Positions 1,897 to 62,815 of a DNA stretch of 64,000 nt are shown piece after piece. Each line of letters opens with the position of its first letter. Positions within the stretch are counted from its first letter, which is position 1. A model generated the notes under the pieces. It was not told where the DNA came from. It searched no databases and worked only from the letters and a program-made list of their open reading frames with translations. Location of the stretch: positions 8,273-72,272 of the forward strand of contig SHYW01000004.1 of assembly GCA_009692615.1 (NCBI GenBank), given 5' to 3'. The stretch is from Deltaproteobacteria bacterium (GTDB taxonomy: Bacteria; Desulfobacterota; Binatia; UBA9968). The position numbers and the translations under genes were made by a program.

Positions 1897-1931
1897 GAAG
1901 GGCGGGTTTTAAACCCGCCCCTACGAATCTC
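1897..1931. repeat. repeat family A copy (perfect hairpin gggcgggttt-taa-aacccgccc)
   Basis: Identical core also at 43912-43942, with a related copy at 3279-3344. Confidence 0.5.
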
Positions 1932-1940
1932 ATTTCTTTT

Positions 1941-1990
1941 TTGCGTACTTTGCGTTCTTTGCGGTTAATTGTCCGAATTCCGCTTACGCC
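1941..1990. repeat. repeat family F copy (ttgcgtactttgcgttctttgcgg..tccgaattccg)
   Basis: Near-identical to 57418-57464, with a partial copy at 47538-47556. Confidence 0.5.
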
Positions 1991-2421
1991 ATCCGCTGCT
2001 TTCGATTGTCGAATTTAAATTTGTTGGCGTTGCAAGCGACCTCGACGCGGTTGCCGTCGGGATCGAGAAAACTCACCGAACGATTGCCCGCCACCACCAA
2101 AGTTTCCGGCCCGCTGACGACGGGAACCTTGCGCCGCTTTAGAAGCGGACACAGCTCATCGATAATTTCGTTGCGGTCGACGTAGATGCAGAAGTGATGC
2201 AGCTTCGCCATCCCCTTGCCGCCGACGTGCTTGGCGCCTTTGGGTAATGCTTGCAGCGCGATATCGTGATGCTCACGGCCGTAACTCAAAAACGTCATCT
2301 TGGTTTGCAAGTTGCGCGCCGAGACTTTCAAGCCGAGCACCGCGGTATAAAATCGCACCGACTTCTTGAGATCCGCGACATTGAGCACGATATGACCGAG
2401 GGCGCCATTTTTCACCAACAT
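1984..2421 (-). CDS. VOC family protein (glyoxalase/bleomycin-resistance/dioxygenase fold)
   Basis: MLVKNGALGHIVLNVADLKKSVRFYTAVLGLKV.. is a VOC N-terminal signature. The ORF-track start is TTG, so the internal ATG at 2421 was chosen. Confidence 0.55.
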   Translation of the reverse strand: MLVKNGALGHIVLNVADLKKSVRFYTAVLGLKVSARNLQTKMTFLSYGREHHDIALQALPKGAKHVGGKGMAKLHHFCIYVDRNEIIDELCPLLKRRKVPVVSGPETLVVAGNRSVSFLDPDGNRVEVACNANKFKFDNRKQRMA

Positions 2422-2528
2422 GCTAGCAGCATTAATGACCGGAGGCAGAACTGTCAAGCGCCGCTCGGCGACGACAACAACGATTTTCCATGTTACAACA
2501 TCAGCAGTAATCACCAAGGAATGATTAA

Positions 2529-3254
2529 ATGATCAAGACTCTGTTGTATCTTCTCGCCAGCGGCAAGTTGGGGACAGTGCTGCTCACGGGCGGTACAATG
2601 CTGTTGTCGGTGTTCGTCTACGCATGGATATTCGGCCTGCCCTACGCCGTCGGCTTTGTCCTGTTGATCTTCCTCCACGAGATGGGTCATTACGCCGCCG
2701 CTCGCCAGTGCGGCCTCAAGGTCGGCGCGCCGACGTTCATCCCATTCGTCGGCGCCTGGATCGCGCTCAAAGACTTGCCACACAATGCCGAAACCGAAGC
2801 CTACATCGGCATCGCCGGTCCCGTGGCCGGCAGCGTCGCCGCTGTCGCTTGTTATTTTCTCGCCTTGAGCTACGACAGCCGCTTGCTGCTGGCATTGTCC
2901 TACTCCGGTTTTTTTATCAATCTGTTTAACCTGATTCCGCTGTCACCCTTCGACGGCGGCCGCATCACCGCGATCATCAGCCCGCGCCTCTGGCTCCTCG
3001 GCGTGCCGATATTGATGGCGGTATTTTTCTACACGCCCAGCCCGCTGCTAATCTACATGGCGTTACTCGCCTGGCCGCAGATCAAGCGCGCCTGGCACTA
3101 CGACCCGGCGGCGCCGGAGAACGCCTTCTACTATTCGGTCAGCCCAAGAAAACGAATTCAGTACTCCGTCTGTTACCTTGGCTTGGCGGCATTTCTCGCC
3201 GTCATGAGTCACGACGTTCACGAGATGTTGGAATTGTCCCGCAGCGCTCGATGA
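2529..3254 (+). CDS. M50 family (site-2 protease-like) zinc metalloprotease
   Basis: HEMGH zinc motif, multiple transmembrane helices, and LSPFDGG near the C-terminus. Confidence 0.75.
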   Translation: MIKTLLYLLASGKLGTVLLTGGTMLLSVFVYAWIFGLPYAVGFVLLIFLHEMGHYAAARQCGLKVGAPTFIPFVGAWIALKDLPHNAETEAYIGIAGPVAGSVAAVACYFLALSYDSRLLLALSYSGFFINLFNLIPLSPFDGGRITAIISPRLWLLGVPILMAVFFYTPSPLLIYMALLAWPQIKRAWHYDPAAPENAFYYSVSPRKRIQYSVCYLGLAAFLAVMSHDVHEMLELSRSAR

Positions 3255-3278
3255 AAATGTCGCATCGAACTGTGTCCT

Positions 3279-3344
3279 GTACGGGCGGGGCGCGACCCGC
3301 CCTTCCCATCCACCCCTGGATACCGGCCTACGCCGGTATGACGG
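3279..3344. repeat. repeat family A-related palindromic element
   Basis: Hairpin gggcgggg-cgcga-cccgccc, followed by cctgga and ggtatgacgg arms resembling 43879-43975. Confidence 0.4.
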
Positions 3345-7806: not shown

Positions 7807-7890
7807 TAGAAACGGTCACTGGCAGGTTTGCATCTCGCTTGCCAACTTAACTCACCGAGTTTAAACTGCCAAAAGTTCGAGGAAGCTATT

Positions 7891-8142
7891 ATGAAAGCGC
7901 GCATCATTCAAATCGGCAAAGCAAAAGGCGTTCGACTTCCAAATAAATTGGTCAAAGTGGCCCATCTCAGGGAAGAGGTCGAACTCGCAGCGGCACCTGG
8001 GCATATCACTATTCACAGCGCCGCTCGGCCGCGCGCCGGATGGTCGGCCTCAGCCAAGCGCATGCGCGAGCGCGGCGAGGATCGGCTAGTCGCGCCGGTA
8101 CCAGCGACAAAATTCGACGAGGAAGAATGGCGGTGGCGCTAG
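7891..8142 (+). CDS. mazE: AbrB/MazE/SpoVT-type antitoxin
   Basis: MKARIIQIGKAKGVRLPNKLV swapped-hairpin N-terminus. Overlaps the downstream toxin by 16 nt. Confidence 0.6.
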   Translation: MKARIIQIGKAKGVRLPNKLVKVAHLREEVELAAAPGHITIHSAARPRAGWSASAKRMRERGEDRLVAPVPATKFDEEEWRWR

Positions 8143-8468
8143 CTCAAACACCCGCACGCGGCGAAGTCTATTTAGTTCAGCTCGATCCAACGCGTGGAGT
8201 AGAGATCCGGAAAACCAGACCCTGCATCGTCATCTCACCCAATGAACTAAATCAACACCTGCGCACAGTAATTGTCGCGCCTTTGACCACGCAGAGTCAC
8301 GCCTATCCGTGGCGCCCACGCTGCCGATTTCAGGGCAAAGCCGGTTATGTTGTCATCGATCAGCTTCGTACCGTCGACGTCCAACGCTTGACCAAACGAC
8401 TGGGACAAATTCCGCAAAACACGCTTACTACGATACTGAACGTACTCCACGAGATGTTTGCATTTTAA
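8127..8468 (+). CDS. mazF: MazF/PemK family mRNA interferase toxin
   Basis: GEVYLVQLDPTRGVEIRKTRPCIVISPNELN..VIVAPLTT.. is a canonical PemK/MazF core. Confidence 0.7.
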   Translation: MAVALAQTPARGEVYLVQLDPTRGVEIRKTRPCIVISPNELNQHLRTVIVAPLTTQSHAYPWRPRCRFQGKAGYVVIDQLRTVDVQRLTKRLGQIPQNTLTTILNVLHEMFAF

Positions 8469-9394: not shown

Positions 9395-9437
9395 CTGTAG
9401 GGGCAGACCTGCGTGTCTGCCCTTCTCCATTCGAAGG
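9395..9437. repeat. repeat family B copy (ctgtaggggcagacctgcgtgtctgccc..)
   Basis: Same element at 59855-59923, with related copies at 15525-15547 and 57465-57492. Confidence 0.5.
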
Positions 9438-9448
9438 ACTGAATCATC

Positions 9449-10552
9449 ATGCTGAGAGCTGGAATCGTCGGTCTGCCCAACGTCGGCAAGTCGACACTGT
9501 TTAACGCCATCACGCGCACGCGCAAAGCCGAGGCGGCCAATTATCCCTTTTGCACCATCGATCCCAACGTCGGCATGGTCACCGTGCCGGACGCGCGGCT
9601 CTATGTCTTGCAGCAGATGGTCAAAACCAACGTGGTCATCCCGGCGGTGATCGAGTTCGTTGACATCGCTGGCCTGGTCAAAGGCGCCAGCCAAGGCGAA
9701 GGGCTCGGCAATAAATTTCTCACCCATATCCGCGAAGTCGACGCCATCGTCCAAGTTGTGCGCTGCTTCGAAGACGCCGACGTGCACCATGTCTCCGGCA
9801 ACATCGATCCGGTGCGCGACATCGAAGTCATCAACACCGAACTCATGCTCGCCGATCTCGAAACCGTGAAGAAGCGGCGCGAGCGCATCGCCAAGGAGAT
9901 CAAGCGCGGCGACAAAGCCGCCGCCGCCGAGGACGCCCTGCTGGTGAAAATCGAAACCGCCCTCGACGCTGGCAAGCCAGCTCTCACTGTCGAACTGACG
10001 CCGGAAGAACACGCCATGTCCGCGCAGTTTTTCCTGCTCTCCGACAAGCGCACGATCTTCGCCTGCAACGTCAAAGAGTCCGACTTGGCCACCGCCGATC
10101 AGAACAGCTACGTGCAAAAAGTGCGCGACTACGTGAAAACCCATCTCGCTTGCGAAGCGGTGGTGATCAGCGCGCAGATCGAGAGCGACCTCGTCGATCT
10201 CGAACCCGCCGACGCTGAAGCCTTTCTCAAAGAACTCGGCGTACAAGAAAGCGGCATCGGCGCGCTCATCCGCGCAACTTATCATCTGCTCGGGTTGCGG
10301 ACTTATCTCACCGCCGGCGAAAAAGAAGTGCGTGCCTGGACCATTCACGCCGGCGACACCGCCCCCAAAGCCGCCGGCGTCATCCACTCCGACTTCGAAC
10401 GCGGCTTCATCAAAGCCGAAACCGTTTCTTACGAGGACTTAGTTCAATGCGGCTCCGTCGCCGCGGCCCGTACGAAGGGCTTATATCGCATGGAAGGGAA
10501 AGAATACGTCGTGCAGGATGGGGATGTGATGTTGTTTAAGTTCAATGTTTAG
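9449..10552 (+). CDS. ychF: redox-regulated ribosome-binding ATPase YchF (Obg family GTPase)
   Basis: GIVGLPNVGKSTLFNA P-loop, DIAGLV, a C-terminal TGS domain, and the conserved tail GKEYVVQDGDVMLFKFNV. Confidence 0.9.
   Translation: MLRAGIVGLPNVGKSTLFNAITRTRKAEAANYPFCTIDPNVGMVTVPDARLYVLQQMVKTNVVIPAVIEFVDIAGLVKGASQGEGLGNKFLTHIREVDAIVQVVRCFEDADVHHVSGNIDPVRDIEVINTELMLADLETVKKRRERIAKEIKRGDKAAAAEDALLVKIETALDAGKPALTVELTPEEHAMSAQFFLLSDKRTIFACNVKESDLATADQNSYVQKVRDYVKTHLACEAVVISAQIESDLVDLEPADAEAFLKELGVQESGIGALIRATYHLLGLRTYLTAGEKEVRAWTIHAGDTAPKAAGVIHSDFERGFIKAETVSYEDLVQCGSVAAARTKGLYRMEGKEYVVQDGDVMLFKFNV
10452..10552 (+). repeat. direct repeat R1 (3' 100 nt of ychF), copy 1
   Basis: About 88% identical to 11120-11219, and the last 60 nt are nearly identical. 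Confidence 0.65.
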
Positions 10553-10586
10553 TGAACAAGCTGAAAATGCGCAGCCGAAAGTAAAT

Positions 10587-10657: not shown

Positions 10658-11074
10658 ATGAAGATTGCGCCTCAGAGTTTCTATGCAGCTATCGCTGCTG
10701 GCTGCGCCACGGTTTTGCCCTTGGTCGGGGTGCAATTAGTCGTTGATTATTTCGATTCACCCGCTAAAGGTCCGGATCGGGCAACAATGGCAGTGATCTT
10801 CCTAACGCCCATTATCATCTTGGGATTTGCAGCCTACTTTGTTGGAGTCAGGATATTACTTTCATTGCTTCGGCTCGATTCGCTTCGTACGGCATTGATC
10901 GTAAGCGCGCTCACTGTCGGCGTTCTAATAAGCTGGATGATTTTCAACGACCCGTCATCAAGCCCGAATACGTTCTGGGGATTTGTCGGACCTTCTTGCA
11001 TAGTTCTTACATCCCTCGTCGCGGGAACTTTTGTGTACGAGTGGGCGCGTCAACGTATTCATCCGAACTGGTGA
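10658..11074 (+). CDS. hypothetical integral membrane protein (3-4 TM helices)
   Basis: 138 aa and hydrophobic. Lies between R2 and the second ychF-tail copy. Confidence 0.4.
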   Translation: MKIAPQSFYAAIAAGCATVLPLVGVQLVVDYFDSPAKGPDRATMAVIFLTPIIILGFAAYFVGVRILLSLLRLDSLRTALIVSALTVGVLISWMIFNDPSSSPNTFWGFVGPSCIVLTSLVAGTFVYEWARQRIHPNW

Positions 11075-11119
11075 AATAGACCACAATACACATGACCGCT
11101 CACGTAGCGATGAATGCGA

Positions 11120-11219
11120 CTCCGTCACCGCCGCGCGCACCAAGGGCTTGTGCCGCATGGAAGGGAAAGAATATGTCGTGCAGGATGGGGATGTGATGTT
11201 GTTTAAGTTCAATGGGTAG
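11120..11219 (+). repeat. direct repeat R1 copy 2 (orphan duplicate of ychF 3' end)
   Basis: Encodes ..AARTKGLCRMEGKEYVVQDGDVMLFKFNG stop, versus the ychF tail ..AARTKGLYRMEGKEYVVQDGDVMLFKFNV. Confidence 0.65.
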
Positions 11220-11249
11220 TGCGCGCCTCGGTCGCGAACGGAAACGAAG

Positions 11250-11477
11250 ATGAAACAACGAAAACTCAAACTATTGGAAACCATCGCACTGCTTCAAGAC
11301 ATACCATCCCGCAAGCTGAAACGCGGCGAAGTTGGCACGGTAGAAGAAATCCTTGCGCCCAATTTTTACGAAGTTGAATTCTGTGATGACGAAGGGCAAA
11401 CCTACGCCGAACTGGCGTTACGCGGCATACAGATCATCCCGTTACATAACCAGAGCCCATTAAGAATTGTCGCGTGA
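11250..11477 (+). CDS. DUF4926-like small protein
   Basis: 75 aa. LLQDIPSRKLKRGEVGTVEEILAPNFYEVEFCDDEGQTYAELAL follows the DUF4926 pattern. Confidence 0.5.
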   Translation: MKQRKLKLLETIALLQDIPSRKLKRGEVGTVEEILAPNFYEVEFCDDEGQTYAELALRGIQIIPLHNQSPLRIVA

Positions 11478-11497
11478 GCAAAGAGGCCCACGACAGC
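11441..11497 (+). repeat. direct repeat R2 copy 2
   Basis: Pairs with 10587-10646. Confidence 0.55.
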
Positions 11498-11574
11498 TCC
11501 AATCTATAGAATTGGTATTATGCCCCCGGACCTTTGTCTCTTTCATTTTCCAAAACTGTGGCTACAATAGGTCC

Positions 11575-11907
11575 GTGGCTCGAGCACTCTCCCCGGATGA
11601 TGTTCTCTTTGAAGTTTTGAGTCCGCTTGGATTTCGTGTACGCGTCACACGCGGCTACTGGGAAGTCATCGTTTCGATCAAGCATCCGGTCATGGCGGGA
11701 CATGAACAGGATGTCAAAGAAACGCTTGAAACTCCCAGCGAGATTCGATTGAGCAAGAACGATTCGACAGTTCACCTGTTTTACCGGCAGAAAGAGATCG
11801 GACGATGGGTATGTGCTGTGGCCAAGCGTCTCGATGGTGAAGGCTTTCTGATTACAGCTTACCCAACCGACGCGATCAAAGAAGGAGAACAGATATGGCC
11901 CAAGTGA
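11575..11907 (+). CDS. DUF4258-like protein (putative toxin partner of DUF2283)
   Basis: C-terminal ..KEIGRWVCAVAKRLDGEGFLITAYPTD resembles the DUF4258 VVITAY motif. GTG start chosen; the ORF-track start is TTG at 11467. Confidence 0.35.
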   Translation: MARALSPDDVLFEVLSPLGFRVRVTRGYWEVIVSIKHPVMAGHEQDVKETLETPSEIRLSKNDSTVHLFYRQKEIGRWVCAVAKRLDGEGFLITAYPTDAIKEGEQIWPK

Positions 11908-15524: not shown

Positions 15525-15596
15525 TGTAGGGGCGACCGGCGGTCGCCCTTGCCCTTACCCTCACCCCTGCCCTCTCCCATCGGAATGGGCGAGGGT
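15525..15596. repeat. composite repeat: family B hairpin (gtaggggcgaccggcggtcgccc) plus family D element (ccctcaccc..ccctctcccatcggaatgggcgaggg)
   Basis: Family D copies also occur at 48647-48740 and 60950-61036. Here it overlaps the predicted ATG of the downstream solute-binding protein. Confidence 0.55.
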
Positions 15597-26160: not shown

Positions 26161-26360
26161 GGCGATGTCTAAACCGGCGACAACTTGGAATTGTCCGCTG
26201 CGCTGGTTTTTCTTCGCGTCATAGCGGCGCAGGTCGGTATCCATCTTCCTTCGTTGCCAACGCACCACCACCCCTGGATGCCGGCCTGCGCCGGCATGAC
26301 CAATACGCGGATAACCACGCGACGTGTGCAATCCTTCATAATTTGAGACCGCGACAAGAA

Positions 26361-27596: not shown

Positions 27597-27697
27597 CCTC
27601 CTCTCCCTTGACGGGAGAGGACAGAGGTGAGGGTGCCAGAATCTTTCAATACCCCTCACTCTAACTCTCTCCCGCAAGGGGAGAGAGAACCGGAATC
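27597..27697. repeat. repeat family E copy (ctctcccttgacgggagag / gaggtgaggg..cccctcactc / ctctctcccgcaaggggagagag)
   Basis: Related copy at 62708-62815. Shares gggtgaggg arms and the cggaatcg motif with family D. Confidence 0.5.
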
Positions 27698-32904: not shown

Positions 32905-32908
32905 GCCA

Positions 32909-33484: not shown

Positions 33485-33501
33485 ATTGCGTGGTCTTTAG
33501 C

Positions 33502-34717: not shown

Positions 34718-34750
34718 TCCCGATCGATCCTTATCCAATCGAACCGATCA

Positions 34751-34788
34751 GACTGGGAGAGTCACTCGCTCTCCCAGTCTTTTTTTTT
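34751..34788 (+). terminator. intrinsic terminator
   Basis: gactgggagag-tcactcg-ctctcccagtc followed by T9. Confidence 0.65.
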
Positions 34789-35353: not shown

Positions 35354-35408
35354 CCCCGCCTCCTATTATTGTAATTGACTGACCCCAGCCTTTTTTTACT
35401 TTGCCCAC

Positions 35409-37614: not shown

Positions 37615-37634
37615 CCCTTAAGTATTGAACAGAA

Positions 37635-38144: not shown

Positions 38145-38209
38145 GACGCGCCTCCTGTTTAAGCAAAAACAACATTACGCTATAGTCTAGGTAATTATAG
38201 GGGGAAGTA

Positions 38210-39370: not shown

Positions 39371-39454
39371 AAAAATGGAGCGCGGACATTGGAGCTCGGA
39401 CACTCCTGTCCGCGTATTTTCCTGAGCGGGTTAGAAAACCCGCGCTCCTTTAAC

Positions 39455-40657: not shown

Positions 40658-40877
40658 ATCCCAACAGTTATTCTCTAAAACTTTCCCGTCTTCAAGCGAA
40701 CGGCGGGAAAGATTTCTCCCAGGGGTCGAAATGACAGATGAGTCTTATTCAACTTCTGTCATCTCGAACGAAGTGAGAGATCTCGTCCTCAAAGGCAAAA
40801 CGGTCACTCAGCCAACCGACGACGTTAGACATTCGCCGCCCCTTCAGGTAAAAATTTCCGCCAAGGAGATTTTTCCC

Positions 40878-43784: not shown

Positions 43785-43878
43785 TTTCTCCGGGAATTTG
43801 AATCCACGATAACGAAACTCCTTAGACTTCAAGCCGAAGGGTTTTGAGTGTGTCAACTGGAAGTCGCCTTGTTCCCAT

Positions 43879-43975
43879 CCGTCATTCCCGTGACAACGGG
43901 AATCCAGGGAGGGCGGGTTTTAAACCCGCCCCTACGGCGAATCACCTGGATTTCCGCGTGCGCGGGAATGACGGA
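43879..43975. repeat. repeat family A full copy: three-level nested palindrome
   Basis: The outer arms ccgtcattcccg..cgggaatgacgg enclose tccagg..cctgga, which enclose the core gggcgggttttaaacccgccc. Confidence 0.6.
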
Positions 43976-44107
43976 CTTTCGCCGCGATTGGCGCATGTCC
44001 TGTCAGCCGTGGAAAAGGCAAGTGACGCCTATCATCGCCGCTCTGGTTTTTATTTGCCCTGCCGGATATATCATTGAACCAAAATCACCAGCGAGAGCGA
44101 GGTCATC

Positions 44108-45577
44108 ATGAACACCGGTTCATTTGTCGACGGCAAATGGTTTCACCCGAAGTCGAATCGATTGGTGCGTAATATTAACCCGGCGGATACCGATGAAGTA
44201 ATCGCCGAGTTTCCCGCCGCAACCGCCGAGGATGTCGCGCGCGCGATCGACGCGGCGCAAGCGGCATTTCGCGGTTGGAAGAAAACTCCCGGCCCCGAGC
44301 GCGGTCGGGTGCTGTGGCGCGCCGCTGACATCGCGCGCCAACGCGCTGACGAAATCGCCCGCACGCTCACCCGCGAAGAAGGAAAAATTCTCAAAGAAGC
44401 CAAAGGCGAAGTGATGAAAGGCATCTCGCTGTTGGAATTCTACGCCGGCGAGGGTTTTCGCATGCACGGCATGACGCTGCCGTCCGAAGCGCGCGATACG
44501 TTTACTTACACGATTCGCCGTCCGCTCGGCGTCGTCGGCCTGATAGCACCGTGGAATTTTCCCTGGGCGATTCCGGTGTGGAAATCCGCTCCTGCGCTGG
44601 CCGCGGGCAACTGTGTGATTTTCAAACCCGCTGAACTGACGCCCGCCACCGCCGCTCTGCTTACCGAGATTTACACAGAAGCCGGATTGCCTCCCGGAGT
44701 ATTCAACATGCTGGTCGGCGCCGGCTCGGTGGTTGGCGAAGCGATGGTTCACTCGCCGGTGCTGCGCGCGATCTCATTCACCGGATCGAACGAAGTCGGT
44801 GGCGCGCTCTACGCCAAGGCGGCCCAGCGCGGCGCTAAAGTAACCTGTGAAATGGGCGGCAAGAACGCGGTCATCGTCATGGCCGACGCCGATCTCGACA
44901 AGGCGGCCATCGCCATCCACGGCGGCGCCTTCGGCTCCACCGGCCAACGCTGCACGGCGACTTCGCGCGTGATCGCGGCGCCCGCCGTCAAAGACGCGCT
45001 GGTCGAACGACTGGTGGCGGCGGCGAAAAACATCACAGTGGGTCCCGGTCTCGACGAGTCGGTCGATATGGGTCCGGCGGTCGACAACAAACAATGGAAA
45101 ACCGATCTCGATTACATCGCCATCGGCCAGCAAGAAGGCGCGCGTCTGCTGCTCGGCGGCAAAGCGCCGCAAGAGCTTGGCAAAGGTTATTTCGTCGAGC
45201 CGACGATATTCGACAACGTCACGCCGGCCATGCGCATCTTCAAAGAAGAAATCTTCGGCCCGGTGCTCGCAGTCACCACGGCGAACAATCTCGACGAAGC
45301 GCTCAGCTACGCCAACGGCGTCGAGTATGGCCTGACGACGTCGATCTTCACGGAAAATATCGACACGATCATGAACTTCGTCGAGGAAGTGGAAACCGGC
45401 ATGGTGCACGTCAACGAACCGACGATTGGCGGCGAAGCTCAACTACCCTTCGGCGGCACTAAGGCCACCGGCGTCGGCGAGCGCGAGATGGCGGTCGAGG
45501 GACTGAACTTTTTCACTGAGTTGAAAACCGTGTTTATCAACTACTCCGGCAAGGCGGAGAGGTTGATGATTCGGTGA
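44108..45577 (+). CDS. NAD(P)-dependent aldehyde dehydrogenase
   Basis: ..[18 protein letters not shown].. catalytic Glu and Cys motifs. Confidence 0.85.
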
Positions 45578-45676
45578 AGTAAACAAGCAGAGATATCACC
45601 GCCGAGACGCGGAGCATCCAGAGATAAGAGATTTGTATTAACTCTCTGCGAACTCAGCGCCTCTGCGATGAAAGTC

Positions 45677-45714
45677 CCGTAGGTCGGGTACGCTGCGCTA
45701 ACCCGACCTACGGG
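45677..45714. repeat. repeat family C copy 1 (ccgtaggtcgggtacgctgcgctaacccgacctacgg)
   Basis: Four copies occur within 1.8 kb: 45677, 46511 (inverted), 46866 and 47413. Confidence 0.55.
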
Positions 45715-45902
45715 CTTCTGCTGGTAGAAATTGTCAGTAGCGCTGCCGAAGTGGCTTTGATACAATACAACCACGATGAGCAAGGCTACAGAGACATCTT
45801 CGAAAATCATCGAATCGCTTCCGCAAGCCACACAAAACGAGTTGTCGAAGAACTACGGGCTTTAACTCTATCGAGTCTTTAGGACACCTACCCAAACTAA
45901 CG

Positions 45903-46094
45903 ATGGAAAAAATCGTCCGCAAGTTCCGATCTTTTGACGCGCAAGAAGAGGCCGAATACGAAGAATACCGGCATCTTTCGGGCGATGAAAAACTTCAACG
46001 CCTCCTCGACTTGATTATGCCGGAGAATCCCGATGCAGCAACTATCGACCGATCTGCGCGAGTTCATCCGCTTGCTGACCACGAAGAATGTTAG
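45903..46094 (+). CDS. small hypothetical protein upstream of, and overlapping, a nucleotidyltransferase-fold gene
   Basis: 63 aa. Its 3' 62 nt overlap the next ORF. A 29-codon ORF (MSKATETSSKIIESLPQATQNELSKNYGL) lies just upstream, at about 45776-45865. Confidence 0.3.
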   Translation: MEKIVRKFRSFDAQEEAEYEEYRHLSGDEKLQRLLDLIMPENPDAATIDRSARVHPLADHEEC

Positions 46095-46497
46095 GTACGT
46101 TATCGTCGGCGCCTGGGCCCTCGCCTTTCACGGTCGGCCGCGCTACACGGGCGATCTTGATGTCTTTGTCGCGCGGGATGAGCAAAATGCTGACAATTTA
46201 ATCCAGGTTATCGATGCATTTGGATTTGCCCAACTCGGCATCAAACGTGAAGATTTTTTACAAGTGGATTACGTCATTCAACTCGGGCGAGAACCTAACC
46301 GTATAGATATTTTAACTGGAATCAGTGGTGTGACCTTCGAAGAAGCGTGGGCGAACCGAAATCAAGGCAACCTATCCGGGCTCCCAGCATTTTTCCTGAG
46401 TCGAGATCTCTTAATCAAGAATAAACGCGCAGCCAACCGGGACAAAGACCTCGGTGATATTAAACTCCTAGAAAAAACCCGACCCACCCGATCCTAA
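46033..46497 (+). CDS. nucleotidyltransferase-fold protein (minimal NTase, TA-associated type)
   Basis: VIVGAWALAFHGRPRYTGDLDVFV is the G-x(n)-D-x-D NTase motif. C-terminal ..LLIKNKRAANRDKDLGDIKLL. Confidence 0.5.
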   Translation: MQQLSTDLREFIRLLTTKNVRYVIVGAWALAFHGRPRYTGDLDVFVARDEQNADNLIQVIDAFGFAQLGIKREDFLQVDYVIQLGREPNRIDILTGISGVTFEEAWANRNQGNLSGLPAFFLSRDLLIKNKRAANRDKDLGDIKLLEKTRPTRS

Positions 46498-46628
46498 GCA
46501 TTCAAAACATTAGGTCGGGTTAGCAAGCGTAACCCGACATCCGCTCTACTCACTGACCAACCGAGCCAGGTCACATCCTCAGTGGCGATGTCGAGCAAGA
46601 CGTTCGTATCGAAAAGGATTCCGCTCAT
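46494..46628 (-). pseudogene. PIN-domain (VapC-like) toxin N-terminal fragment, truncated by a family C repeat
   Basis: MSGILFDTNVLLDIATEDVTW.., then the frame runs into repeat 46511-46540 and stops after 44 codons. ATGA overlap with the upstream antitoxin remnant. Confidence 0.4.
46511..46540. repeat. repeat family C copy 2 (inverted orientation)
   Basis: taggtcgggttagcaagcgtaacccgacat. Confidence 0.5.
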
Positions 46629-46780
46629 TCCTCACCACGAGTGAGGGCCATCACGTCCGGCAGAGCGTCGCCCCGCGCCCGCTTGAGTCAGGCTTCGGCA
46701 GCCAGCGACGCGGCGAGTTCGTCCACTTGCGGTGTCGGTAAATGCTCAATAGCGGTTTCAATTTCAGCGATAGTGCTCAT
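46625..46780 (-). pseudogene. VapB-like antitoxin with an in-frame TGA
   Basis: MSTIAEIETAIEHLPTPQVDELAASLAAEA-TGA-LKRARGDALPDVMALTRGEE. The two halves together have normal antitoxin length. Confidence 0.4.
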
Positions 46781-46865
46781 AGGCAAAAGTCTAGCATCGC
46801 ATCGGAGAAACCGTCAACAAGCCCGGCCTCTGCGCCGCGATGTTGCATCGCGGTTAGCGCAGGCG

Positions 46866-46896
46866 TCGGCTTACGCTGCGCTAACCCGACCTACCG
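46866..46896. repeat. repeat family C copy 3
   Basis: gtcggcttacgctgcgctaacccgacctaccgg. Confidence 0.5.
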
Positions 46897-46899
46897 GCT

Positions 46900-47303
46900 T
46901 TACTCTTCTACCAGCGTGATATTTACCAACCACTGATGCGCATCGCTGGCTTCTCCACGAGAGGTGGTGACAGCTAAACCGACAGCGGTGGCCGGCCCTT
47001 GCTCAAATGTCTCGTTGCCGTGGTTCGATGCATGGACTTTCCATTGTTGGGTGTGTATGCCCGTGCAGTTGAACAGCGTGCGGCCCTCTGCCACGGCCCC
47101 AGTTGAACGCTGAGTTACCGCCACTCGTAGAGACGCCCTCTCCCCCTTAGTGCACTCAATTGGCCCGGTCACAATGATATGGCGACCGTTGTCAGTCATA
47201 ATGGCGACCGGGTCGATGGTGTTATATGTAACCCTTGCGAAGACTAGAGATGCGCCCCCCCCGCAAAGGTCAGGACGATGGCAGCCGACATGAGACGGTT
47301 CAT
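46900..47303 (-). pseudogene. secreted hypothetical protein gene split by a G8 homopolymer frameshift (signal peptide and mature part in different frames)
   Basis: ATG..MNRLMSAAIVLTFAGGAHL-stop in one frame. The ORF 46900-47199 (MTDNGRHIIVTG..) continues upstream, in the adjacent frame, straight through the C8/G8 run at 47255-47262. A +1 G fuses the two. Confidence 0.4.
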
Positions 47304-47412
47304 GCGCTTTTGGGTTGGTTGAGCAAACATGGTTAGTGTTCCATTCTGTCGATGTTGAAGTCGAACGTGTAGCGCCTTTATCGCCAACGGCTAGCGGTAG
47401 TCAAGAGCCGTA

Positions 47413-47450
47413 CCGTAGGTCGGTTATGCTGAACGCTAACCCGACCCACG
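47413..47450. repeat. repeat family C copy 4
   Basis: ccgtaggtcggttatgctgaacgctaacccgacccacg. Confidence 0.5.
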
Positions 47451-47589
47451 ACGGTGGGAGAGCAAGGCTGGTGTGCTCATCGACGAAAAAAAAGGGCGCA
47501 GCATGCTGCGCCCTTACAACCCTGATATTTGTTCCGACCCTTTGCGTACTTTGCGCCCCGATCGCCCTGAGCATCGTCGAAGGATGCGG

Positions 47590-47967
47590 CTAATTTTTCT
47601 TCTCTTCCACCGGCGCCGCGCCCTGCCAGTGGCCGACATCGACGATAATGCCCTCCGGCCCTTTATATTTATCTTCGTAGTAGGCTGTGCCGAGATTCAC
47701 CGCGCCAGCTTTTTCCGCGCCCGCCGCTTCTAACGCCTTAAACTACTCCTGATCGTTGTCCGTGGAGAAGCCGATGTGGTCGATGCCGGCTTGGCCGCCC
47801 GTACCGGCGGCGAGCGGAAGAACCGTGATGTTGACCGAACCGTCGCTCAGATCGATGGCGTTGTTCTTGCGCTTCTGGATCAACTTCATGCCCATGGCGT
47901 CGACAAAAAAATTAGCCATCGCGTCCACGTCCACCGCACGGTAAGCAATGTGTCTGATTTTAGCCAT
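47590..47967 (-). pseudogene. VOC/glyoxalase family gene interrupted by an in-frame TAG (amber) codon
   Basis: MAKIRHIAYRAVDVD..GIDHIGFSTDNDQE-TAG-FKALEAAGAEKAG..VDVGHWQGAAPVEEKKN. The two halves share one frame and together make a normal ~125-aa VOC protein. GGAGG ribosome-binding site. Confidence 0.5.
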
Positions 47968-48032
47968 GATCGGCCTCCAAAAAAATATTTGGCGTCTAAG
48001 GTTCAACTCTCGACGCTAGACTCGGAATAATT

Positions 48033-48536: not shown

Positions 48537-48646
48537 AATTTTATCCTTTCAATTTCGATCTGCCGAATCGGCGAAGCGATTCTATGGGAGAGTAACCGAT
48601 TGCGCAAGCGCAAGCCGCGTCATGTCGCATTTTGAACCTTCGAATT

Positions 48647-48740
48647 CCCTCGCCCTCTGGGAGAGGGCTAGGGTGAGGGCGTACGAAAAATTCAAACCCT
48701 CACCCCCCGCCCTCTCCCATCGGAATGGGCGAGGGAGCCG
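48647..48740. repeat. repeat family D full palindromic copy
   Basis: ccctcgccctctgggagagggctagggtgaggg ..spacer.. ccctcaccccccgccctctcccatcggaatgggcgaggg, with the arms mutually reverse-complementary. Confidence 0.55.
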
Positions 48741-48770
48741 GGAAAAGCATCGCTGGCTGGTTCTATTGGC

Positions 48771-49328
48771 CTACAAACGAAACGCCACGGTGGCGAAAAC
48801 ATTACCGTTGACCTCGAAGCTCCCGACATCGGTCATCCCCAAACCCGCGACGTGGGCATCCATCGAGTGTTGGTTGGCGCGTGCGATCAGCGCGACGCCG
48901 ACTTCGAACCGCCCTGCCAGGTCTCGTTTCTGCGCTTCGAACAAGCCGCGCAAAAGTCCTTGGCGCCGATGAACGCGGTCGATGCACACCGGACCGTAGG
49001 CATAGGATTTGTAAGTATTGAGCAGCTGGCCGTCAAAGCGCAGGCGATCGTAGGATTCGATCATCTTGGCGACCACGGGCGAACCATGGTTGAATTCGTT
49101 GCGAAAGGCGCAGAGAAATCCGGCGAGCTGGCCATCGACAATCGCCACCGTCGTGCCCAAATCTTCCGCCATGGCGGCGGTCTGATCCAACGTAAATACC
49201 GCCGAGAGAAATCCATCCGCGCGCTCATCGGCGGCAAGATTGGTGATGAAGTTGGCGGCGTTGAGCTGCACGATGGCCGGATAATCCGCCGGCAACGCGC
49301 GGCGATAATCAGTAGCACCCATAATCAT
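48771..49328 (-). CDS. GNAT family N-acetyltransferase
   Basis: ..CIDRVHRRQGLLRGLFE.. acetyl-CoA-binding motif A-like. Confidence 0.65.
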   Translation of the reverse strand: MIMGATDYRRALPADYPAIVQLNAANFITNLAADERADGFLSAVFTLDQTAAMAEDLGTTVAIVDGQLAGFLCAFRNEFNHGSPVVAKMIESYDRLRFDGQLLNTYKSYAYGPVCIDRVHRRQGLLRGLFEAQKRDLAGRFEVGVALIARANQHSMDAHVAGLGMTDVGSFEVNGNVFATVAFRL

Positions 49329-57417: not shown

Positions 57418-57492
57418 GCTTTTGCGTCCCTTTGCGTTCTTTGCGGCCAATCCTCCGATTCCGGTAGGGGACGGTCGCGACCGTCCCCTACA
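57418..57492. repeat. composite repeat: family F copy plus family B-like hairpin (gtaggggacggtcgcgaccgtcccctac)
   Basis: The family F part matches 1941-1990. The hairpin has a perfect 12-bp stem. Confidence 0.5.
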
Positions 57493-59757: not shown

Positions 59758-59854
59758 AGTGCGCTCCCTGCCTCCGGTTTATGCCATCGTTGTAAGTCCG
59801 TCAAATGATCCGCCTTTGGGGTGTGTTTCATTTTGTTTTTAACATCGCATCTCA

Positions 59855-59923
59855 CTGTAGGGGCCGACCTGCGTGTCGGCCCTCTGAACGGGCGGACACA
59901 TAGGTCCGCCTCTACAAATTCAG
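59855..59923. repeat. repeat family B full copy (two hairpins)
   Basis: ctgtaggggccgacctgcgtgtcggcccc followed by gggcggac-acatag-gtccgcc. Confidence 0.5.
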
Positions 59924-59993
59924 GCGAAACTGAATCACTACCCGCCTTTGGCATTAGTTGACAGTCTCCTCACGCCCATGTTTAGTGACCGTC

Positions 59994-60944
59994 ATGCGCA
60001 GCAAGATTTTCTTTCTGGCCCTGCTCCTGCTCTTTGACAGTTCCCCAGCGTTCGCCCAACTGAAAAAAGTTCGCTTCTCGGTGAGCGCCGCATCCATCGC
60101 CGAACTGCCCTTTCGCATCGCCCATGTCAAAGGCTTCTATCGCGAAGAAGGGCTCGACGTCGAAGTGATCTTCATTCGCGGCGCGGTGGGCATGCAGGCG
60201 TTGCTCGGCGGCTCGGTGGATTTCACCTCGGCGTCGGGCTCGACCATCGCGGCGGCTGTGCGCGGTATCCCAGTGAAATTAGTTTTCATCGCCTCGGCCA
60301 AACCGCAGTTCGACATGGTCGCGCAAAAAGAGATTCGCTCGATGAACGACCTCAAAGGCAAATTCGTCGGCATCTCGTCGCGCGGCGGCGCCATCGATTT
60401 GCTTACTCAACTGATGGTCCAGAAACATGGCTTAACGCCGAACAAAGACGTCACCAGCCTGGTCATCGGCGGGCAAGAAGACACGGTGCTGGCGCTGCGC
60501 GCCGGCCGCATCGCCGCGGCGTTATTGACTCCGCCCCGGCCGTTGATATTGCAGCGCGAAGGTTTTAACCGCATCGGCTATTCCGGCGACTACATGCCGA
60601 CCTACCCGAGCGGCGGCATCGGCGTCACCGATGAGACGATCAAGAGCAAAACGCCGGAACTGCAAGCCTTCGTCAAAGCCAGCGTGCGCGGCTTGCAATA
60701 CGCCCGGCAAAATCGCGCCGACGCGAAAAAGCTCGTCGCCGATTATTTCGCCATCAAAGACGCCGCCCTGGCCGAGCAATTTTTCGACTTGTACTTGAGC
60801 CGCCTGCCGGTGAACGGTTCCGCCGACGAAGCCTGGATGAAAGGCGCCATCGAGTTCACTCAAAAGAGTTTAGGCGACGCATCCAAGGAAGCGAGCATGA
60901 GTCAAGTTTTCGATTTCAGTTTCGTGAATCGTGCGGTGCGATAA
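59994..60944 (+). CDS. NMT1/THI5/SsuA-like substrate-binding protein
   Basis: Signal peptide MRSKIFFLALLLLFDSSPAFA, and ..LKGKFVGISSRGGAID.. Confidence 0.7.
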   Translation: MRSKIFFLALLLLFDSSPAFAQLKKVRFSVSAASIAELPFRIAHVKGFYREEGLDVEVIFIRGAVGMQALLGGSVDFTSASGSTIAAAVRGIPVKLVFIASAKPQFDMVAQKEIRSMNDLKGKFVGISSRGGAIDLLTQLMVQKHGLTPNKDVTSLVIGGQEDTVLALRAGRIAAALLTPPRPLILQREGFNRIGYSGDYMPTYPSGGIGVTDETIKSKTPELQAFVKASVRGLQYARQNRADAKKLVADYFAIKDAALAEQFFDLYLSRLPVNGSADEAWMKGAIEFTQKSLGDASKEASMSQVFDFSFVNRAVR

Positions 60945-60949
60945 AGATT

Positions 60950-61036
60950 GCCCTCTCCCATCGGAATGGGCGAGGGAGTCGGAATCGATTTTGTTCCCTC
61001 GACCGCAACGCGGGAGAGGGTTAGGGTGAGGGCAGC
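60950..61036. repeat. repeat family D copy
   Basis: gccctctcccatcggaatgggcgagggagtcggaatcg..cgggagagggttagggtgaggg. Confidence 0.55.
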
Positions 61037-61054
61037 AAAATAAAGATTCTGAGT

Positions 61055-62674
61055 ATGCCAACCAGCCCCACACACACTCCCGTTCTCATCGCCGGCGCCG
61101 GCCCAGTTGGTCTCGCCCTCGCCAGTGAACTCGCTTATCGAAATATTCGCTGCTTAGTCGTCGAACAAACCGACGGCAGCGTCGACTTTCCGACGACCAA
61201 CTTGGCCAACACCCGCACCGTCGAACACCTGCGCCGCTGGGGCCTCGCCGATCGTATGCGCTACCAATCCGGCTATCCCACCGACTATCCGCGCAATTAT
61301 TTATTCGTCACGCGCATGGATGGCCATCTGATCGCCCGCTTCGATCATCCGGCCAACGGCGCGCCCGACGCGCGTTCGCCCTACAGCCCCGAAGGCCGGT
61401 TGTGGATTTCCAAACCCTACTTCGATCCGGTTTTGCGCGCCCATGTCGCGACGCTGCCGCAGGTCGAAGTGCGCTACGAGACTTCGTTCGAATCGTTTCA
61501 GCAAAACGACAACGGCGTCAGTGCCAAAGTCCTCGACAAAAAAACCGGTAGGAGCGAAATCATCGAAGCCGATTATCTCGTCGGCTGCGACGGCGGCCGG
61601 AGCAACATTCGCCGCGCCATCGAGATAAAATACGCCGGAGTTTTTTCCCAAGGCATGAACGTCGCCGTGCTGTTTCGCTCGCCGTTGTTGAAATTAATTA
61701 CCCACGGCCCGGCGGTGCAGTATCAAATCATCAACGCCCAGTTGAACGGCGCCATCGCCGCCGTCGACGGCAAAGAACTTTGGCGTTTGAACATCCGCAA
61801 CGTCAAACAAGAGCAGATCGATGGCTTGAACGCGCCGGAAAAACTGAGCTTCGCCCTCGGGCCGGACATTCCGTTTGAGTTGCTCGCCGTGCGCCCCTGG
61901 ACCGGCCACTGCGTGGTCGCCGACAGTTACCAAAAAGGCCGAGTCTTTCTCGCCGGCGACGCGGCGCATTTGAACTGGCCCGCCGGCGGCTTCGGCATGA
62001 ACACCGGCGTCGGCGACGCCGTCGACATCGGCTGGAAGCTCGCCGCCGTGCTCCAAGGCTGGGGCGGCGCGAATTTGTTAAATAGCTACACCGCGGAAAG
62101 AAAACCCATCGCCATGATCAACGTCAACGAAGCCGCCGAAATGCGCGCCAGCTTCGACAACCAAACGCCCTTCGCGCCGCAAATCGGCGACGACAGCGAC
62201 GAAGGTCAAGCGCTGCGCGAAAAAGCCCGCGCCGCGATCATGCGCACCCGGGCGAAAGAATTTCAGCACGACTCGGTCGGCATCGAACTCGGCTACCGCT
62301 ACGAGAACTCACCGATCTGCGTCGCCGACGGCACGCCCGCGCCGGAACTCGACCACGGCCTCTACGTCGCATCAACTTGGCCCGGCGCCCGCGCGCCCCA
62401 CGTCCAACTAAAAGACGGCCGCTCGACGCTAGATCTTTATGGCAAAACTTTTGTTCTGTTGAATTTCTCCGCCACGAACACGACCACGATCACGAACAGC
62501 GCCAAGCAAGTCGGCTTGCCGCTGGAAGTAATAGCCATCGATGAACCGACGGTACGCGAAATCTACGAACACGATTTAGTCCTAGTCCGCCCCGACGGCC
62601 ACGTCGCCTGGCGAGGCAATTCAATTCTAGCGAACCTCACCAAAATCATCGACAAAGTCCGCGGCGTAATATGA
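61055..62674 (+). CDS. FAD-dependent aromatic-ring monooxygenase (PheA/TfdB-type)
   Basis: VLIAGAGPVGLALASEL dinucleotide fold, ..GCDGGRSNIRR.., ..FLAGDAAH.., and a thioredoxin-like C-domain. Confidence 0.8.
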   Translation: MPTSPTHTPVLIAGAGPVGLALASELAYRNIRCLVVEQTDGSVDFPTTNLANTRTVEHLRRWGLADRMRYQSGYPTDYPRNYLFVTRMDGHLIARFDHPANGAPDARSPYSPEGRLWISKPYFDPVLRAHVATLPQVEVRYETSFESFQQNDNGVSAKVLDKKTGRSEIIEADYLVGCDGGRSNIRRAIEIKYAGVFSQGMNVAVLFRSPLLKLITHGPAVQYQIINAQLNGAIAAVDGKELWRLNIRNVKQEQIDGLNAPEKLSFALGPDIPFELLAVRPWTGHCVVADSYQKGRVFLAGDAAHLNWPAGGFGMNTGVGDAVDIGWKLAAVLQGWGGANLLNSYTAERKPIAMINVNEAAEMRASFDNQTPFAPQIGDDSDEGQALREKARAAIMRTRAKEFQHDSVGIELGYRYENSPICVADGTPAPELDHGLYVASTWPGARAPHVQLKDGRSTLDLYGKTFVLLNFSATNTTTITNSAKQVGLPLEVIAIDEPTVREIYEHDLVLVRPDGHVAWRGNSILANLTKIIDKVRGVI

Positions 62675-62707
62675 GCGTCATAGTTTTCATCCTAATCCGA
62701 TCCGACG

Positions 62708-62815
62708 TCCTTCCCCTTGACGGGGAAGGAATGAGCAAGGGGTGCGCAAAATATTTTAATAGCTTGCGCAGCACCCCTATCCTAACCTTCCACCGTCGAG
62801 GGGGAAGGAATAAGA
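62708..62815. repeat. repeat family E copy (three hairpins)
   Basis: ccttccccttgacggggaagg, then aggggtgcgcaa..ttgcgcagcacccct, then ccttccaccgtcgagggggaagg. Confidence 0.5.

Follow-up and report, generated by a model that had tools for sequence, protein, structure and literature searches.

Four classes of intergenic hairpin repeats, three of them previously described, share the spacers of a 64-kb segment from an uncultured Binatia-like bacterium

Introduction

Short palindromic repeats crowd the spaces between genes in a 64-kb segment from an uncultured soil bacterium (contig SHYW01000004.1 of the metagenome-assembled genome (MAG) GCA_009692615.1, Deltaproteobacteria bacterium, assigned to Binatia; the segment, analyzed over its whole length, is hereafter referred to as the window), which raises the question of what these repeats are and how they came to share the same spacers. 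An initial annotation had recognized at least 17 copies of six families (A to F) and interpreted them as elements resembling repetitive extragenic palindromes (REPs), bacterial interspersed mosaic elements (BIMEs) or miniature inverted-repeat transposable elements (MITEs) that assemble modularly and recombine as mosaics. All six motif families are present at or near the positions where they had been placed, and the modular REP/BIME-like or MITE-like character was essentially right. However, the six families regroup into four classes, three of which have been described previously. By their tags and stems, A, B and C are classified as GTAG-tagged REPs; the outer arms assigned to A represent a separate known class, the CGTC-tagged REPs; D and E group as BoxC/PIT/TMECO elements; and F is best read as an arm of a palindrome built of octamers. 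With three of the four classes already described, the repeats belong to known kinds, and the window is a dense yet essentially ordinary mix of known intergenic repeat classes. We consider it likely that they are non-coding, structure-forming repeats of four classes which accumulate in spacers and in or beside each other's loops.

Results

Repeat content of the window

About 30 repeat units occupy about 16 intergenic spacers of the window, including about 12 GTAG, 7 CGTC and 9 BoxC units and 3-5 F arms (Table 1); the earlier figure of at least 17 copies was too low. The window has a GC content of 56%, genes for NMT1-type binding proteins, luciferase-like monooxygenases and glyoxalases are abundant in it, and the repeat sites are spacers separating genes with clear Pfam domains. 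In 100 dinucleotide-preserving shuffles, there were 0 matches for every pattern that matched in the window. Comparison of the window with itself recovered the same repeat families, the only other repeats being a direct repeat beside ychF and one paralogous gene pair. When 20 elements were folded as single-stranded DNA, 17 had z-scores of -2.7 to -8.6 relative to shuffled sequences, and 19 fell between -1.5 and -8.6. Folding is strong for REP and BoxC elements and weak for the REP variant at 3279, which has the weakest fold (z -1.5), and for the solo F arm, which lacks significant structure of its own (z -1.8). Loci of other assemblies were fetched and compared with the window (L-numbers, such as L007 or L249, denote these loci). 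The expectation that the repeats extend beyond the window was borne out: the same families are present in L007, L015, L034 and other MAGs, L007 and MAGs related to it combine families A, B, D and F with the CGTC type, and the cores of A and D are found in many unrelated genomes. Directly observed for these repeats are their sequence class, hairpin potential, intergenic position, recurrence in other genomes, and presence or absence at orthologous sites.

GTAG-tagged REPs and their relation to RAYT genes

Most REPs have been sorted into two superfamilies by an unpaired terminal GTAG or CGTC (Di Nocera 2013, PMC3733652), and the gtagg...cctac clamp that the initial annotation noticed in B, C and the hairpin adjacent to F is the tag that defines the first of them (PMC3733652). 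In families A, B and C, which we classify as GTAG REPs, an unpaired GTAG or a near variant stands directly 5' of a short stem-loop, as in the class definition (5-13 bp stem), and the units are multi-copy, dispersed and extragenic, with a head-to-head dimer at 59857/59915. Eight of the 286 GTAG sites in the window directly precede a perfect or near-perfect hairpin of at least 7 bp, compared with 0-3 sites for control tetramers whose site numbers were equal to or above that of GTAG. Five distinct, fully compensated stems have a common GGG(C/A)...(G/T)CCC base, and the folds of this class range from z -2.7 to -4.9, the GTAC variant at 3279 excepted. The approximately 12 units are spread over 9 spacers, and the same units are found in L007, L015 and L034.

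The families differ in their coherence. The 21-mer of family A is exact at 1900 and 43911, and a variant copy at 3279 retains the GGGCGGG/CCCGCCC stem. The family B pattern is matched with one mismatch each at 9397 and 59857; the units at 15526 and 57464 share with it only the frame GTAGGGG(C/A)...(G/T)CCC, their stems being different and compensated, and an inverted partner at 59890-59915 had escaped the earlier listing. The family C consensus as originally typed is matched nowhere at up to 3 mismatches, as indels separate the copies from one another; four diverged copies do exist, at 45679, 46510, 46852 and 47415. All four lie in an island (45578-48006) of small open reading frames (ORFs) with low GC content at third codon positions (GC3), which also holds a DUF6036 nucleotidyltransferase gene (46033-46497) and a truncated glyoxalase gene (47743-48006).

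IMG/VR contains the A core (GTAGGGGCGGGTTTNAAACCCGCCC) in 72 stretches, as many as 7 copies being packed into ~14-14.5 kb; on either side of it in L207 are likely phage tail genes. In the putative viral IMG/VR contigs L186, L241, L205 (GC ~70%), L230 and L191 (GC 61%), an A-type REP occupies many gene spacers, some of which also hold partial copies in tandem. Octamer arms of the CACAGATG type enclose a GTAG REP plus a CGTC REP in L230 and L191.

GTAG REPs are mobilized by REP-associated tyrosine transposases (RAYTs), HUH/Y1 enzymes which bind single-stranded hairpins and cut at the tag. The search for a RAYT gene that had been proposed along with the repeats came out negative: no Y1_Tnp or RAYT domain was detected by Pfam analysis of 40 window ORFs, no RAYT was found by tblastn with the E. 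coli RayT (a weak match in L056 was rejected as a RAYT), and none was found when a hidden Markov model of 109 diverse RAYTs was run against all six-frame ORFs of the window and of ~2.2 Mb of fetched loci, which is a small part of any genome. Between the inverted A-type REP pairs of L184 and L207 we found a long uncharacterized ORF and likely phage structural genes, and no RAYT. In 80 metagenomic RAYT loci fetched for comparison, many RAYT genes are flanked on both sides by GTAG hairpins with tags facing outward, with 9-bp stems and loops of 8-9 nt, (a)GCGNAGCG, as in GTAG GGCGGATTA gcgcagcg TAATCCGCC. Family C (GTAG GTCGGGTTA gcgcagcg TAACCCGAC) shares the 9-bp stem, the loop and the design of the RAYT-flanking REPs, which places it, by stem and loop design, with REPs that are demonstrably RAYT-associated. 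A B-type dimer near a RAYT gene in L272 was rejected as the cognate REP, that gene being flanked on both sides by a REP of another type.

BoxC/PIT/TMECO elements

BoxC or PIT elements are reportedly known from E. coli through the work of Bachellier in the 1990s and of Hoyne in 2000. What was named BoxC and then PIT elements has been redefined as TMECO, with the pattern CCCTCNCCC-N3-6-GGGNGAGGG-N3-GGGNGAGGG and 3610 occurrences in 262 proteobacterial genomes (Holder 2015, PMC4666352). TMECO units are always intergenic, occur on both strands, frequently form inverted pairs and have been linked to local genome instability; cyanobacteria contain abundant G/C-rich triplex motifs and PIT elements, with TMECO itself found only in proteobacteria; and triplex formation by the single-stranded DNA was examined by circular dichroism and nuclear magnetic resonance on the E. 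coli sequence only (PMC4666352).

The strict TMECO pattern has one match in the window, at 48647, and a relaxed pattern (first loop of 3-8 nt, at most 1 mismatch per block) retrieves 6 window units and 0 in 30 shuffles. Positions 61012-61032 carry a G-rich 21-mer (GGGAGAGGGTTAGGGTGAGGG) that coincides letter for letter with the G-rich half of type A units in E. coli (Table 1 of PMC4666352), and window units also have the central G·A mismatch seen in the 'mm' type of E. coli. The pattern matches, the E. coli-identical G-rich half and the 'mm' mismatch argue that D and E constitute a single family, BoxC/PIT/TMECO. The hexamer 'cggaat', which had been offered as a feature shared by them, shows no enrichment: the window holds 10 TCGGAAT sites, roughly half of them inside genes. 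The 26-mer core of family D is exact at 15570, 48710 and 60951; of the coordinates originally given for D, 60950 holds, but 15548 and 48647 correspond to the start of flanking blocks and of the partner unit, respectively. For family E, the inverted pairs 27599/27653 and 62708/62772 were confirmed, but 23955 is only a small hairpin.

In asymmetric variants, the third block mirrors the second instead of repeating it directly (GGGGGAGGA/AGGTGGGGG, GGGGGAGAG/GAGTGGGGG and, at window position 62708, GGGGAAGG/GCAAGGGG), and third blocks that seem 'direct' are register shifts of a symmetric core. Such mirroring is predicted for a triplex-capable design, and this symmetry would endow BoxC units with the potential for intrastrand triplex formation.

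A scan for the exact 26-mer across one genome per species (GTDB representatives) returned 71 loci in 37 MAGs, the titles of which name ~10 phylum-level groups: Planctomycetes, 'delta proteobacteria'/Syntrophobacter/Thermodesulfobacteriota, Binatia, Acidobacteria, Eisenbacteria, Armatimonadetes, Chloroflexi, Verrucomicrobia, Patescibacteria/Saccharibacteria and Pseudolabrys. The unit conserved across these loci is CCCTCACCC-N3-CCCTCTCCC-ATCGGAAT-GGGCGAGGG; the 26-mer has 0 matches in IMG/VR. The flanks of the core are unrelated, the local GC content ranges from 44% to 64%, and several matches lie on contigs of 1 to 5 Mb, including a 5.07-Mb chromosome from long-read MAGs; therefore, binning error does not explain this spread. 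A longer element of ~170 nt (…CCACGAAGTGATTCATGAGCTTACGCTCGCC…BoxC unit…spacer…inverted BoxC unit) is present in L004, L016, L025, L040, L051, L053, L054 and L060, from MAGs labelled Pseudolabrys, Acidobacteria, Eisenbacteria, Verrucomicrobia and delta proteobacteria.

Both the window and L026 have a BoxC pair upstream of an FAD monooxygenase gene; the two genes are orthologs with 76% identity in coding sequence, and their BoxC units stand in opposite order. At a larger scale, window positions 60053-62617 and 31922-38152 are 64-76% identical at the nucleotide level to L026 and L046, respectively, with gene order partly rearranged; the MAG labels of these two loci are among Eisenbacteria and Thermodesulfobacteriota, and L046 has a BoxC unit where the window has an extra gene (35409-36416).

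CGTC-tagged REPs and further palindromes

The outer arms attributed to family A and the units near 3.3, 26.2 and 40.7 kb are, as judged by tag, stem and tail, CGTC-tagged REPs of the dRS3 type. The units 43880(+), 43973(-) and 3343(-) consist of CGTC, ATNCCNGN (8 bp), a 4-nt loop, the complement and CCAGG, and thus display every feature of the CGTC-1 format (besides the tag, a stem of 8 bp whose first bases are AT, a loop of 4 nt and a CCA tail), which is that of the Neisseria dRS3 repeat family (Di Nocera 2013, PMC3733652). The units at 43880 and 43973 form a head-to-head dimer with REP A inside its spacer, and this composite (43878-43975) folds at -39.6 kcal/mol with the lowest z-score of all elements (-8.6). 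Beside the 26.2-kb dimer, Pfam analysis identifies 26361-27515(-) as the real gene. We know of no enzyme that mobilizes CGTC REPs.

The palindromes at 39375-39452 and 40710-40783 represent two further palindromic repeat families, held in common with other MAGs at 81-82% identity. The former may act as a terminator, predicted on the minus side.

Octamer arms and a 23S-rRNA-IVS-protein element

Family F comprises three tandem octamers, YTTTGCGN, followed by GG(C/T)(C/T)AAT...TCCGA(A/T)TCCG; its copies at 1941 and 57418, as well as the partial copy at 47538, had been correctly recognized. The complete form, as seen in IMG/VR loci, is a pair of inverted arms with a 14-44-nt spacer, in light of which family F appears to be the solo arm of a palindrome with three-octamer arms. 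Among the fetched loci, no F arm pair has a spacer longer than 44 nt, except in L340 (170 nt). A generic detector of period-8 arms was too strict and missed known copies, and a text search of the literature for the A and F sequences returned nothing relevant.

Arms of octamers also surround the gene 614-1063 (minus strand), which encodes a PF05635 four-helix-bundle protein of 149 aa and lies immediately to the left of the region covered by the initial annotation. Close homologs of a neighboring gene carry the names Candidatus Binatia/Binatota, Eisenbacteria and Zixibacteria. The four-helix-bundle protein has 3671 homologs at E<1e-5, the best 120 of which are all 77-100% identical to it and mostly encoded on short contigs. 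The gene is found with the same arms at the orthologous site in L249-L254 and L336 and, in a different context, between two enoyl-CoA hydratase genes in L243. A 38%-identical homolog in L005 has arms of the CTGGATGC type, and L018 contains TGGAGT arms with a spacer of just 19 nt. The intervening sequences (IVSs) of 23S rRNA have a ~28-bp stem of terminal inverted repeats, sometimes contain an S23p ORF and have long been suspected of mobility (PMC4990558). Inverted arms of approximately this length (~28 bp) are present in the 568-1095 element and its relatives in two genomic contexts.

Composite elements and orthologous junctions

Copies abut each other in varied combinations (A+F, F+B, B+D), as originally reported, but they were not shown to 'recombine as mosaics'. 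The composite of a GTAG REP followed by an F module at the same distance is also present in L007, L015, L008 and L032; therefore, A+F and F+B represent conserved composites rather than random mosaics. Similarly, the REP+BoxC junction of the 15526 region is identical in L007. REPs are also found inside the spacers of other palindromes. Recurrent composites and REPs within palindromes would fit nested insertion better than recombination shuffling. In T. roseum, A. variabilis, H. neapolitanus and Neisseria, units have likewise been reported to insert in or next to palindromes (PMC3733652).

The glyoxalase, TENA and 3-HAO gene order was recovered from seven further assemblies, and the spacers were compared. 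Between TENA and 3-HAO, the window, L249 and L336 contain the IVS-protein (IVP) element, L344 a solo TGGAGT arm, L340 an F-type arm pair with a 170-nt insert, L338 a short F-type palindrome, and L342 nothing (21 nt). Between glyoxalase and TENA, the window has an F arm and REP A (110 nt), and L344 (2297-2500) has a palindrome of a third type with CACGAAG-type octamer arms (CACGAAGN x3 ... CTTCGTGN x3, 204 nt); in L249, L336, L337, L338 and L342 this junction consists of 26-55 nt without these repeats. The F arm of 1941 is also missing from the orthologous spacer of L249-L253, as is the PF05635 cassette from the orthologous junction in L338, L342 and L344. The differing contents of the junctions imply that elements come and go at orthologous sites, and we regard this sequence comparison as direct evidence of such turnover. 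The same comparison shows F-type and IVP-type arms behaving as one class, as far as can be judged from arm design and location. With regard to a MITE-like nature, inverted arms and presence or absence at orthologous sites were observed, the spacers are too diverged for target-site duplications to be seen, and no transposase-bearing relative was found.

We tentatively propose, giving the idea limited credence, that family F and the PF05635 arms belong to one undescribed mobile 'octamer-arm' class (CGCAAAGN, TGGAGTNN, CACGAAGN, CACAGATG and GTTCAAAC octamers), with gene-carrying and empty MITE-like forms, which would insert just after stop codons and whose loops REPs would then enter. The four-helix-bundle (S23p) protein, which we take to be a relative of Avd, the accessory protein of diversity-generating retroelements, might bind or mobilize the arms. 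If this is true, the classical rRNA IVS would be one special case of a widespread element, and the link provides a testable hypothesis on the function of the very common, uncharacterized S23p four-helix-bundle proteins.

Discussion

A scenario of repeat accumulation

Under the scenario that we favor, several classes of selfish or near-neutral hairpin repeats would accumulate in intergenic DNA. GTAG REPs, short hairpins with an unpaired 5' GTAG, would be mobilized in trans, as we infer from their class, by a RAYT encoded elsewhere in the genome, which would act on single-stranded hairpins and cut them at the tag. A BoxC strand, with its C-rich block, G-rich complement and mirror G-rich block, could fold into a hairpin or an intrastrand triplex. 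New units would land in or next to existing palindromes, and a preference for each other's loops and spacers would produce mosaics similar to BIMEs and to their counterparts in Neisseria, the NIMEs. The involvement of mobilizing enzymes is possible, and so are secondary effects on the host, such as protection of mRNA 3' ends and local genome instability.

Several points weigh against this scenario. Repeat counts for the source MAG cover the 64-kb window. The presence of a BoxC pair at the FAD monooxygenase gene in both genomes could reflect a conserved function or an insertion hotspot instead of neutral insertion. Neither target-site duplications nor clean boundaries of insertion could be recognized at the orthologous spacers, which are too diverged for such boundaries to be defined. 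Unlike in established REP/RAYT systems, no cognate RAYT was seen in the window or the ~2.2 Mb of loci, so that mobilization of A and B by a RAYT would follow from class membership. Finally, no F-armed copy carrying a PF05635 gene was found in the fetched loci or in two gapped IMG/VR scans (0 matches), and the link from F to IVS-like elements is one that we infer from shared architecture and shared insertion sites.

Alternative explanations

The hairpins might instead be mainly host regulatory RNA elements (terminators, 3'-end stabilizers or 5'-UTR structures) under selection. This we deem improbable, and it is compatible with the accumulation scenario, as inserted repeats can be co-opted. Most elements do lie between same-strand or convergent genes, as reported for REPs, a BoxC pair precedes the FAD monooxygenase orthologs of the window and L026, and the 39.4-kb hairpin, located between convergent genes, has a T-run. 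Nevertheless, 20 of the 22 elements lack the T-tract of an intrinsic terminator, with 0-5 T's within 10 nt after the hairpin on both strands, and were rejected as such; for contrast, the terminator at 34755-34788 (stem 34755-34779, GACTGGGAGAG...CTCTCCCAGTC) is followed by nine T's. A terminator scan of 1-20 kb had no repeat site among its terminator-like matches, some elements are located in divergent spacers (59758-59957), and no Rfam family matched in the window at gathering thresholds or even at E<=1, nor was any rRNA found. Moreover, the same units stand beside unrelated genes in many phyla and are present or absent at orthologous junctions, and published tests of PIT/BoxC elements detected no promoter or terminator activity (PMC4666352).

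Far less probable still is that the family C palindromes (45.6-47.5 kb) are attC-like sites of an integron-type cassette array (a cluster of attC sites lacking integron-integrases, CALIN). Their spacing of 360-830 nt, their position between small low-GC3 ORFs, and the presence among these of a DUF6036 nucleotidyltransferase and a glyoxalase fragment, typical cassette cargo, are reminiscent of such arrays. The C units, however, measure 29-43 nt compared with ~55-140 nt for attC, lack the R''/R' cores (RYYYAAC / GTTRRRY) and have mixed orientations (-, +, -, -), and the attC reading was rejected because length, core sites and orientation all depart from the definition. No integrase was found among the ORFs tested, and the units carry the GTAG tag and the stem and loop of RAYT-flanking REPs.

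Errors of assembly or binning, or palindromes arising by chance in GC-rich DNA, could be suspected as the source of the repeats from the metagenomic origin of the window and the many close relatives of its genes on short contigs, but this reading is refuted by the expectation of zero matches from shuffled sequences, by the independent assembly of the same gene order in an ENA metagenome contig (and of the leftmost four genes in a Logan contig), and by the occurrence of the D core on the megabase contigs and long-read chromosome described above.

Genomic features and annotation

Table 1. Repeat elements of the window, in order of position
Coordinates	Strand or units	Feature	Sequence, fold or comparison
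568..1095	-	PF05635 gene (23S-rRNA-IVS-protein) element	27-nt inverted arms, each of three TGGAGTNN octamers
1900..1924	-	Family A GTAG REP	GTAG GGGCGGGTT taa AACCCGCCC; fold z -4.5
1941..1982	+	Family F solo octamer arm with TTAAT..TCCGAATTCCG tail, after REP A	TTTTGCGTA CTTTGCGTT CTTTGCGG
3279..3302	+	A-variant REP, degenerate tag	GTAC GGGCGGG gcgcga CCCGCCC; fold z -1.5
3315..3343	-	CGTC REP	CGTC ATACCGGC gtag GCCGGTAT CCAGG
9397..9422	+	Family B GTAG REP	GTAG GGGCAGAC ctgcgt GTCTGCCC
15526..15548	+	B-type GTAG REP, abuts BoxC unit	GTAG GGGCGACC ggc GGTCGCCC; identical unit in L007
15558..15595	-	Family D BoxC unit	CCCTCGCCC attccgat GGGAGAGGG cag GGGTGAGGG
26218..26300	units 26218/26275	Degenerate CGTC-type REPs, head-to-head dimer	Spacer before MR_MLE gene; fold z -4.6
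27599..27687	27599-27633 (+), 27653-27687 (-)	Family E, inverted pair of diverged BoxC units	Pattern and fold
39375..39452		Composite palindrome between convergent genes, absent from the initial annotation	82% identical to L007 6717-6783; fold z -4.9; T-run on minus side
40710..40783	40710/40755	TGTC/CGTC-like inverted pair, absent from the initial annotation	81% identical to L051
43878..43975		Nested composite	CGTC REP 43880 (+), family A GTAG REP 43911-43935 (-), CGTC REP 43973 (-)
45598..45668		F-like octamer-arm palindrome, CTCTGCG type, both arms, short spacer	Arm pair and fold
45679..45711		Family C copy 1, tags at both ends	GTAG REP
46510..46538	+	Family C copy 2	Tag TTAG
46852..46894	-	Family C copy 3	GTAG GTCGGGTTA gcgcagcg TAAGCCGAC
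47415..47449		Family C copy 4, diverged	C-cluster comparison
47538..47560	+	Partial F arm	CCCTTTGCGTACTTTGCGCC
48647..48735	48647-48679 (+, exact TMECO pattern), 48697-48735 (-)	Family D inverted BoxC pair	Fold z -7.3
57418..57463	+	Family F arm with CCAAT..CCGATTCCG tail, abuts GTAG REP	Octamers
57464..57491		B-type GTAG REP, perfect 28-nt palindrome, tags at both ends	Tag and stem
59857..59915	59857 (+), 59915 (-)	Head-to-head dimer of B-type GTAG REPs	95% identical to L034
60951..61032	truncated unit 60951-60976, full unit 60996-61032 (+)	Family D, FAD monooxygenase upstream region	Pattern
62708..62809	62708/62772	Family E, inverted BoxC-variant pair	CCTTCCCC / GGGGAAGG / GCAAGGGG; fold z -6.4

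The repeats would mislead automatic gene callers and probably also break assemblies. ORFs running through them (43848-44111, 48622-48972 and 25054-26631) and the TTG start at 15513 are probably spurious or too-early starts, and recognizing the repeats improves the annotation of uncultured Binatia-like genomes. Two other features of the window are of a different kind. A direct repeat of ~102-109 nt (10446-10554 and 11113-11221, 89-90% identical), the first copy of which is the 3' end of ychF, encloses and precedes low-GC3 ORFs without a Pfam match (10658-11074 and 11467-11907), and looks like an insertion at the gene end that duplicated the ychF 3' end. In the region 7828-8468, a MazF/PemK-type toxin gene (8040-8468) follows a small overlapping ORF without a Pfam match, and the two are predicted to be a type II toxin-antitoxin pair, which we regard as probable.

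The window adds a lineage that combines three classical classes of repeats at high density. Beyond the literature consulted go the breadth of exact conservation of the BoxC variant with an 8-nt loop, the abundance of A-type REPs in putative viral contigs and, possibly new, the inferred F/IVS-like link to S23p. Conservation of an unchanged 26-nt BoxC core across MAGs of ~10 phylum-level groups sharpens the question of how BoxC/PIT and CGTC repeats spread; to our knowledge, neither has a dedicated spreading enzyme.

Comparison with known systems

The A, B and C units share with the REP/RAYT system (REPtrons and REPINs, with the REPs of E. coli and Pseudomonas) an unpaired 5' GTAG, including GTAC, TTAG and GTGG variants (PMC3733652), stems of 7-9 bp, 3-8-nt loops, stem variants that are compensated within a family, dimers in head-to-head arrangement, an intergenic position, and insertion inside other palindromes. 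The A and B stems (GTAGGGGC...GCCC) are placed by class description, with no named family from GTAG-1 to GTAG-24 assigned, and the occurrence of the A core in many putative viral (IMG/VR) contigs is a difference from this system. In common with CGTC-1 repeats (Neisseria dRS3, Rickettsia RPE-6), the window units have the CGTC tag, the 8-bp stem starting with AT, the 4-nt loop, the CCA(GG) tail and the ATTCCC-N8-GGGAAT core, and their head-to-head dimers can enclose other repeats, as in Neisseria NIMEs. They differ in that several copies have degenerate tags (TGTC, GGTC) and that the host is a Binatia-like 'deltaproteobacterial' MAG, as opposed to alpha- or beta-proteobacteria.

The 568-1095 element resembles the 23S rRNA IVSs of Leptospira and Coxiella in having ~27-nt inverted repeats around a PF05635 gene, compared with the 28-bp stem in Coxiella (PMC4990558), and the arms of family F, with their three tandem octamers, have the same architecture. 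Unlike the IVSs, which are located in helix 9, 25 or 45 of 23S rRNA and are excised by RNase III, this element lies between protein-coding genes, and the F copies of the window are solo arms without a gene. BIMEs of E. coli are known to bind IHF or gyrase. As in BIMEs and in the NIMEs of Neisseria, different short families abut or nest in one spacer of the window and their combinations vary, whereas the families combined here are GTAG REPs, CGTC REPs, BoxC units and octamer arms.

The BoxC units, finally, have the same three 9-nt blocks as their E. coli counterparts (CCCTC(G/T)CCC, GGGAGAGGG and GGGTGAGGG, with the central 'mm' mismatch), a similar second loop (~3 nt in E. coli, 3-4 nt in the window), an intergenic location in both orientations, frequent inverted pairing, and a presence that varies between relatives. 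In contrast to the published first loop of 3-6 nt, that of the dominant D variant has 8 nt (ATTCCGAT); diverged variants use other purine words while keeping the mirror symmetry; and the D core reaches Planctomycetota, Acidobacteriota, Chloroflexota, Armatimonadota, Verrucomicrobiota, Patescibacteria and other phyla.

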